A DNA stretch of 1,983 bases from Escherichia coli (GTDB lineage Bacteria > Pseudomonadota > Gammaproteobacteria > Enterobacterales > Enterobacteriaceae), in NCBI RefSeq assembly GCF_003334765.1, contig NZ_QOWT01000075.1. The stretch is one strand, 5' to 3'. This document shows, in pieces, positions 1-1,983 of the stretch; position 1 is the first letter of the stretch, and each line of letters begins with the position of its first letter. Position numbers and translations under genes: made by a program. Under the pieces are notes generated by a model. It did no database searches. It was not told where the DNA came from and saw only the letters and a program-made list of their open reading frames with translations.

Positions 1-225
1 GCTCTGTATCACTGTATTGTCTTCCGGCAACTGATGAGGGCTGGCAGAAGTCGCCGGTGTTTCGGTAGCGTCACGTTCATTCACCACGCGGAGTGAATAA
101 CCGTTTTCAGCGACTTTGTTAATCAGTTCAGCGAGCTCAATACCATCGACGTCAACGACAATGCGCCCCATGTTCAGCGCCTGCGCATTAATGCTGTCGG
201 CTTCCAGCGTCAGGGCCAGTTTCAT
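1..225 (-). CDS. yeeW: YeeW-like protein, 5' portion only (75 codons; continues beyond window start)
   Basis: Manual minus-strand translation from ATG at 225..223 gives MKLALTLEADSINAQALNMGRIVVDVDGIELAELINKVAENGYSLRVVNERDATETPATSASPHQLPEDNTVIQS with no stop up to position 1. N-terminus matches my recollection of E. coli YeeW. The ATG overlaps the toxin stop as ATGA (222..225). Possible SD GGGGG about 9 nt upstream. Not in the ORF track, presumably because it is truncated by the window edge. Confidence 0.7.
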   Translation of the reverse strand, partial: MKLALTLEADSINAQALNMGRIVVDVDGIELAELINKVAENGYSLRVVNERDATETPATSASPHQLPEDNTVIQS

Positions 226-1410: not shown

Positions 1411-1887
1411 TTAAAGCAGACCGTGTTCCGCAAAGGAGAAAACCTGGCTGCCACCGACTATCAGATGGTCCGGTACCCGGATATCAACCAGGGCCAGTGC
1501 CTGTACCAGACGCTCAGTGATAAGGCGGTCTGCCTTGCTGGGGGGGACTTCACCGGACGGGTGATTGTGCGCCAGCACCACGGCAGCGGCATTGTGGTAC
1601 AGGGCGCGTTTAATCACTTCCCGGGGATGGACTTCCGTACGGTTGATGGTGCCGGTGAAGAGGGTTTCACCGGCAATCAGCTGATTCTGGTTGTTCAGAT
1701 ACAGCACCCGGAACTCTTCACGCTCCAGTCCCGCCATGTTCAGAATCAGCCATTCCCGTGCCGCATGCGTGGAGGTGAAGGCCACGCCGGGTTCATGAAG
1801 ATGGCGGTCCAGGGTTTTCAGGGCCCGCTGAATGAGGCTGCGCTCGCCGGGTGTCATCTCTCCGGGCAGAAAGGAAAGTTGTTGCAT
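1411..1887 (-). CDS. yeeS: RadC-like JAB/JAMM-domain protein (YeeS/YfjY/YkfG family; historically mislabelled DNA repair protein RadC)
   Basis: Translation MQQLSFLPGEMTPGERSLIQRALKTLDRHLHEPGVAFTSTHAAREWLILNMAGLEREEFRVLYLNNQNQLIAGETLFTGTINRTEVHPREVIKRALYHNAAAVVLAHNHPSGEVPPSKADRLITERLVQALALVDIRVPDHLIVGGSQVFSFAEHGLL (158 aa) contains the JAMM signature H-x-H-x7-S-x2-D (HNHPSGEVPPSKAD, encoded at 1528..1569). Start set at ATG 1887..1885, which has GGAGAG 9 nt upstream; the track's longer ORF starts at ATG 1902..1900, which has no SD and abuts the upstream stop. Stop TAA at 1411..1413. Confidence 0.88.
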   Translation of the reverse strand: MQQLSFLPGEMTPGERSLIQRALKTLDRHLHEPGVAFTSTHAAREWLILNMAGLEREEFRVLYLNNQNQLIAGETLFTGTINRTEVHPREVIKRALYHNAAAVVLAHNHPSGEVPPSKADRLITERLVQALALVDIRVPDHLIVGGSQVFSFAEHGLL

Positions 1888-1894
1888 TGTGCTT

Positions 1895-1900
1895 CTCTCC
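1895..1900 (-). promoter_or_regulatory. Shine-Dalgarno GGAGAG for the RadC-like gene, lying within the first-ATG codons
   Basis: Minus strand reads TGA ATG GAG AGA AGC ACA ATG; GGAGAG sits 9 nt upstream of the ATG at 1887. Confidence 0.55.
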
Positions 1901-1902
1901 AT

Positions 1903-1983
1903 TCAATCGATGATGCGCATAATGGCGCTGCATTCCGGATGCTGCAGGGCGTAATCCCGCAGCCGGTAATAATGGACCGTCAT
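1903..1983 (-). CDS. 3' end of upstream gene (26 codons plus stop); possibly a KlcA/ArdB-family antirestriction protein (YfjX/YafX-like) by synteny
   Basis: Minus-strand frame reads ...MTVHYYRLRDYALQHPECSAIMRIID then TGA at 1905..1903, with no internal stop back to the window edge. In CP4-57 and CP4-6 type cassettes the gene immediately upstream of the RadC-like gene is an antirestriction protein, but in CP4-44 it is yeeR, so the product is uncertain. Confidence is for a real coding 3' end, not for the product. Confidence 0.5.
   Translation of the reverse strand: MTVHYYRLRDYALQHPECSAIMRIID

Follow-up and report, generated by a model that had tools for sequence, protein, structure and literature searches.

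The start codon of an island-borne RadC-like gene at its junction with an antirestriction gene in Escherichia coli

Homologous junctions in E. coli K-12

The closest described counterparts of the gene examined here are three paralogs in E. coli K-12, one in each of CP4-6, CP4-44, and CP4-57. Our window (the whole 1,983-nucleotide stretch of E. coli DNA that was analyzed) carries a RadC-like gene directly downstream of an antirestriction gene, with two in-frame candidate start codons, which we call ATG1 and ATG2, and a third ATG further into the gene, ATG3. The K-12 pair yafX and ykfG (b0247, CP4-6) resembles the pair in the window in its gene order, in the layout of its junction (a TGA stop codon, 15 nt containing a Shine-Dalgarno [SD] sequence, and an ATG), and in the length of the downstream product (158 amino acids [aa]), the first 60 residues of which are 83% identical to those encoded in the window. 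Unlike the window, K-12 ykfG has CCG after the stop codon, hence no start ambiguity, and its SD sequence is AAGGAG.

By sequence, the nearest K-12 relative is yeeS (b2002, CP4-44), which is 98% identical over residues 9 to 60. It differs from the window in that a deletion joins yeeR to approximately codon 11, and its start is ATG3, overlapping the yeeR stop codon as ATGA. Neither the antirestriction gene nor the junction at issue is present at the K-12 yeeS locus. The yeeR/yeeS junction (positions 6290 to 6330 of locus L003, GAGGAGAGATGACG), with its ATGA overlap, corresponds approximately to window positions 1866 to 1850. Relative to E. coli 042, the deletion in K-12 runs from the 3' part of the membrane-protein gene through the IrmA, DUF905, DUF932, and antirestriction genes into radC, of which roughly the first 10 codons are gone. 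Because of this deletion, the 148-aa YeeS is no guide to the natural start of the family.

The third K-12 pair, lfgA (yfjX) and lfgB (yfjY, b2644, CP4-57), is a homologous pair in a homologous operon, also with a short gap between stop and start. Its points of difference from the window are a TAA stop codon, an 8-nt out-of-frame spacer, a tandem ATGATG, and an SD sequence (AAGGA) that overlaps the stop codon; the identity of LfgB to the window protein, about 76%, applies to residues 19 to 59 only. This junction (positions 8376 to 8392 of locus L004) has a small start ambiguity of its own at the tandem ATGATG. The paralogous K-12 cluster has been reported to form one operon, with a kanamycin insertion in lfgA being polar on lfgB, and the same study describes LfgB as a protease and the antitoxin MqsA as a protein that it degrades (PMC10846083).

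Among co-directional E. coli gene pairs in general, distances peak at +9 to +12 nt, a spacing in which an SD sequence fits but a promoter or terminator does not, and such pairs nearly always share one transcript (PMC10666635). At this spacing, the second gene of the pair is believed either to initiate on its own or to be coupled at low efficiency (PMC10666635). With 15 nt (14 nt in some alleles) between stop and start, the junction in the window lies slightly beyond this peak, inside the +11 to +20 nt range.

The window, its genes, and the anatomy of the junction

The window matches the chromosomes of several E. coli strains, 042, 55989, and O104:H4 among them, at 100% identity over its full length. 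Of 5426 complete E. coli genomes, 4942 have related copies, at a median of 3 per genome and roughly 13,900 places in all. All genes in the window lie on the minus strand. The gene order in E. coli 042 is Ag43, membrane protein, IrmA family, DUF905, DUF932, antirestriction, RadC family, DUF987, CbeA antitoxin, CbtA-family toxin, and DUF5983. Within it, the portion antirestriction-radC-DUF987-cbeA-cbtA has the same order and orientation as in K-12 CP4-6, CP4-44, and CP4-57, and, judged by this arrangement, the gene run is the right-hand module of CP4-type islands. Elsewhere in the window, the stop codon of the cbtA-family toxin gene and the start codon of the DUF5983 gene share an ATGA (positions 222 to 225, minus strand), a 4-nt overlap that represents a classic termination-reinitiation layout. 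The DUF5983 gene is annotated in E. coli 042 as an incomplete pseudogene lacking its C terminus.

The RadC-like protein matches Pfam PF04002 (RadC) over residues 43 to 162 of its 163-aa form (E = 4.5e-44) and scores above the cutoff of TIGR00608 (147.7 versus 133.85 bits). Its sole solved relative is the JAB domain of the RadC homolog in PDB entry 2qlc (E = 6.7e-25). The JAMM metal-binding motif of JAB/JAMM domains, HxHx7Sx2D, is present in the translation as HNHPSGEVPPSKAD. The full-length RadC equivalog NF000642 (PRK00024) was matched below its cutoff (158.9 versus 180 bits) and only over profile positions 88 to 211 of 212. Based on these profile matches, the protein is an island-borne, N-terminally short RadC-like protein and is distinct from the housekeeping RadC. 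Either candidate start lies about 40 residues upstream of the JAB domain, and the catalytic function is therefore not at stake in the choice between them.

On the minus strand, the junction reads ...ATC ATC GAT TGA ATG GAG AGA AGC ACA ATG CAA CAA CTT..., with the upstream open reading frame (ORF), ATG1, and ATG2 in one common frame. [quoted passage not shown] The frame runs from window base 1983 to ...AIMRIID* and ends at the TGA at 1905..1903. ATG1 (1902..1900) abuts this stop codon, and its G doubles as the first base of the SD core. The SD element, GGAGAG (1899..1894), is followed by the 6-nt gap AGCACA (1893..1888) and then by ATG2 (1887..1885), so that the spacer between the TGA and ATG2 spans 15 nt (1888..1902). 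From ATG2, the gene comprises 158 codons plus a TAA stop codon (1411..1887; WP_001388380.1 in E. coli 042); from ATG1, the ORF extends over 1411..1902 and encodes 163 aa beginning with MERSTMQQLSF. Translation from ATG1 would yield the tryptic peptide STMQQLSFLPGEMTPGER, and translation from ATG2 would yield the N terminus (f)Met-QQLSFLPGEMTPGER or QQLSFLPGEMTPGER.

The original prediction had pointed to two candidate ATG codons, a GGAGAG before the second, and a difference of five residues (MERST) between the products. All three elements are borne out by the strand read and the ORF list, and the positions it gave for the TGA, ATG1, and ATG2 agree with our reading of the minus strand. A third in-frame ATG, ATG3 (1857..1855), was absent from it; this codon specifies an internal Met, number 11 in the 158-aa protein and number 16 when the long ORF is counted from ATG1. 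By our own rough estimate, the chance of an in-frame ATG in a five-codon spacer is about 5/64, or about 8%, and the presence of one is thus unremarkable by itself.

Conservation of the candidate starts and the choice between them

We compared junctions from IMG/VR viral contigs, from five E. coli genomes across the identity range, and from the three K-12 paralogs. Those of the same architecture amount to 36 loci, which represent 22 distinct 240-nt haplotypes; they form a convenience sample rather than a census, and the loci from viral contigs carry no host labels. The TGA stop codon, the upstream C terminus (...RIID*), and ATG2 are unchanged in all 22 haplotypes. ATG1 is present in 6 of the 22 (10 of 36 loci), all in a single lineage with the spacers ATGGAGAGAAGCACA, two single-base variants of ATGGAGAGAAGCACA, and ATGGAGGCAGGGACA. 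Elsewhere, the triplet at the position of ATG1 is CCG, ACG, AAG, GCA, CCA, or ACA. When the N termini of these orthologs are aligned, ATG2 is found in 36 of 36 junctions, whereas ATG1 is restricted to its one lineage and its frame is lost in 14-nt spacers; the orthologs do not begin at yet another position. This alignment, which the original prediction had proposed as a check, therefore indicates ATG2. The original prediction thus stands in its anatomy, and the choice of start, which it left open, is settled by the ortholog N termini in favor of ATG2.

The spacer itself occurs in 14 distinct sequence forms, two of which are 14 nt long (L087, AAGGGGCCGGAACA; L089, GCAGGAGCGGGACC). In both of these loci, radC is intact and is annotated by PGAP at 158 aa despite the shorter spacer, and an in-frame extension is impossible because 14 nt shifts the upstream stop codon out of frame. 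L087 encodes the same first 60 RadC residues as the window (100% identity), yet its 14-nt spacer is without ATG1 and departs from the 15-nt spacer of the window at many positions. L087 is the most telling single case for ATG2. The 14-nt spacers (positions 682 to 695 in both L087 and L089) co-exist with 15-nt spacers in otherwise near-identical gene pairs, which indicates that the distance between stop and start varies by no more than 1 nt, whereas the sequence of the spacer is nearly free save for the SD core.

Patterns of divergence on the two sides of ATG2 are distinct. The spacer, with a mean pairwise identity of 53%, behaves as noncoding DNA; the 72 nt of coding sequence on either side are more alike, at 85% for the end of the upstream gene and 83% for the stretch that begins after ATG2. 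In codons 2 to 10, one change between the two main clades alters the residue (CAA/AAA, Gln/Lys), and the others (CAA/CAG, CTG/TTA, and GGA/GGC) are synonymous; because the differences are mostly of the latter kind, the stretch downstream of ATG2 appears to be translated. Even the distant paralogs (yfjY/lfgB, L040, and L041) start 0 to 2 codons from the site aligned with ATG2, 8 to 13 nt past the upstream stop codon.

Ribosome-binding signals were assessed as predicted pairing with the 3' tail of 16S rRNA. In the window, the values are +0.3 kcal/mol for ATG1, -6.4 kcal/mol for ATG2, and -2.6 kcal/mol for ATG3. The value for ATG2 corresponds to a moderate SD sequence, one that about 1 in 10 window positions equals. 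Among the spacer variants, an SD core (GGAG, AGGAG, GAGG, or GGGG) is found at a constant distance from ATG2 in 14 of 14, and the predicted pairing ranges from -6.0 to -10.8 kcal/mol. Only ATG2 has the form of a canonical SD-led start, in which a purine-rich core complementary to the anti-SD sequence lies about 5 to 9 nt before the codon and is shared by relatives, as ATG1 has no SD sequence and the GGAGAG before ATG3 abuts it without a spacer. Because ATG1 and GGAG share a G, the last base of the one and the first of the other, a ribosome paired with the SD sequence could not place ATG1 in the P site, and the overlap makes the two modes of initiation mutually exclusive. We also considered a hairpin, seen in the minimum-energy fold, that would occlude the SD sequence by pairing GGAGAG with CUUUCC (radC codons 4 to 6) and that, if real, would make coupling obligatory. 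This candidate was rejected: its z score is -0.35, with 65 of 200 shuffles folding as well, and the consensus fold over 20 relatives reaches only -3.1 kcal/mol, with G-U/A-U wobble and no convincing covariation.

We next estimated how common ATG1 is in complete E. coli genomes, using counts of BLAST places for 49-nt junction queries with 1 to 3 mismatches tolerated; the counts are thus approximate haplotype frequencies. The two ATG1-type spacers gave about 3300 places (ATGGAGAGAAGCACA, query L086) and about 3000 places (ATGGAGGCAGGGACA, query L088). For the spacers without ATG1, there were 1329 places for the 14-nt form of query L087, 39 for that of query L089, and 539 for the ykfG type (query L002), or about 1900 for the three types counted together. 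The 14-nt spacers make up about 1370 places, a figure that may take in 15-nt AAGGGGG variants such as L012. ATG1 is, by these counts, not rare: it is fixed in the most successful E. coli lineage of the gene and missing from the sister lineages. Junctions of the ATG1 type are carried by E. coli 042, 55989, O104:H4, and O157:H7. The overall distribution is as common descent would give, and it bears no sign of selection for ATG1.

From these observations, we infer that the RadC-like gene starts at ATG2 (1887..1885) and encodes a 158-aa protein beginning with MQQLSF, a reading to which we assign a probability of roughly 0.87. The SD sequence would lie in an untranslated 15-nt spacer, the only conserved content of which is the GGAG core (1899..1896), 6 to 8 nt before the start. 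Pairing of a 30S subunit with this core would bring ATG2 into the P site, and the subunit could be either newly recruited or kept once translation of the antirestriction gene has ended at its TGA, 15 nt upstream. ATG1 would be incidental to one lineage: it overlaps the SD sequence (as ATGGAG), has no SD sequence of its own, and is probably dispensable for expression. The persistence of ATG1 in a successful lineage is a point against this reading, as is the moderate strength of the SD sequence before ATG2.

In a rival reading, both starts would be used, with most initiation at ATG2 and a substantial minority of terminating ribosomes (say, at least 20%) reinitiating at ATG1 to produce a 163-aa isoform in which MERST has no selected function. 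We regard this as unlikely, though it has several observations in its favor. [quoted passage not shown] Some E. coli gene pairs reinitiate without a contribution from an SD sequence (PMC6728339), and ATG1 is retained in both of the common spacer haplogroups, ATGGAGAGAAGCACA and ATGGAGGCAGGGACA. However, removal of the SD sequence lowered reinitiation in four of five E. coli gene pairs (PMC6728339), a result that counts against a start with no SD sequence such as ATG1, and the overlap of ATG1 with the SD sequence of ATG2 would set the two modes of initiation in competition for the same bases. The putative extension also varies at two of its five residues between the ATG1 haplogroups (MERST versus MEAGT), although identity is at least 95% over the 60 residues that follow, and ATG1 is missing from the sister lineages. 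A stronger version, in which ATG1 is the main start in its lineage and the 163-aa protein is made by strict termination-reinitiation, seems to us quite improbable. It would account for the abutting stop and start, it corresponds to the longest ORF, and it was adopted in the submitter annotations CBG37327.1 and EGT68666.1. Yet a preference for the longest ORF is a matter of annotation convention and provides no evidence, and re-annotation by PGAP shifted the start to ATG2. ATG1 is, moreover, unconserved and without an SD sequence, its frame is lost in the 14-nt variants, and the spacer evolves like noncoding DNA.

A start at ATG3 (1857..1855), giving the 148-aa protein annotated for K-12 yeeS (b2002), is hardly credible. 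The annotation of yeeS and the GGAGAG that precedes ATG3 speak for it. Nevertheless, this GGAGAG leaves no spacer before the codon, the pairing energy within the allowed range is only -2.6 kcal/mol, the codon is ATA in four haplotypes (8 loci), the nine codons upstream show protein-level conservation with changes that are synonymous, and K-12 yeeS is what a deletion has left, joined to yeeR and stripped of all of the upstream sequence. We rejected ATG3 as a start because of the ATA variants, the synonymous changes in the codons before it, and the deletion in K-12. The names ykfG, yfjY, yeeS, lfgB, and RadC are absent from the TRAINSPOTTER N-terminomics supplements. Start-site data from K-12 could not discriminate between ATG1 and ATG2, as K-12 ykfG lacks ATG1.

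Annotation, coupling, and the shared reading frame

The start at ATG2 is already known through RefSeq annotation, and the question addressed here is an ordinary start-site question. ATG2 is the annotated start in all seven RefSeq records that we fetched, including the curated record of K-12 ykfG. At least 1000 contigs carry the 158-aa form, compared with 2 for the 163-aa form, which comes from the annotations first submitted for E. coli 042 (CBG37327.1) and O104:H4 C227-11 (EGT68666.1). These 163-aa models in older GenBank records are better read as 158 aa. The importance of this correction is limited to annotation hygiene, and expression or tagging constructs would best be cloned from ATG2, advice that is timely given the reported action of the K-12 paralog LfgB/YfjY as a protease on MqsA. 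The junction may also serve as a small example of a seeming upstream start that is really a by-product of an SD sequence and its flank.

The antirestriction and radC genes must be co-transcribed, because the gap between them is 15 nt and no promoter-like or same-strand terminator-like site was found near the junction; the sole terminator-like site lies on the opposite strand, downstream of radC. As to translation, the original prediction held that either start would give coupling to the upstream gene, which goes beyond the sequence evidence: ATG1 has no SD sequence, and ATG2, at +15 nt (+14 nt in some alleles), falls in the range of +11 to +20 nt, for which reinitiation was left undecided (PMC10666635). 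Only the unconserved ATG1 lies inside the coupling range of -8 to +10 nt. In native E. coli pairs, termination-reinitiation fell by 40 to 80%, depending on the gene, when the gap was +14 nt, and for short-spacer pairs with an SD sequence, independent initiation was considered likelier, or at least as likely (PMC10666635). Translational coupling of radC to the upstream gene is plausible, and ATG1 may be used at a low level in this allele.

Where the spacer is 15 nt long, as in the window, a single frame holds both the antirestriction and the RadC-like ORF, and the TGA is the only stop codon between them. Occasional readthrough or loss of this TGA could in principle yield an antirestriction-JAB fusion or, in a milder form of the same idea, ATG1 could give rise to a regulated isoform that is five residues longer; we consider either outcome very doubtful. 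A conserved in-frame readthrough fusion was rejected, as the frame is broken by the 14-nt spacers and by the 8-nt spacer of yfjX-yfjY. The antirestriction and RadC-like proteins showed no similarity to each other by BLASTP (best E = 0.064). The 90%-identity protein cluster that includes the RadC-like protein has 11,164 members; its representative is an antirestriction protein, as are many of its members. This mixed membership suggests either bridging fused ORFs, in which the in-frame TGA was lost or misread, or a clustering artifact.
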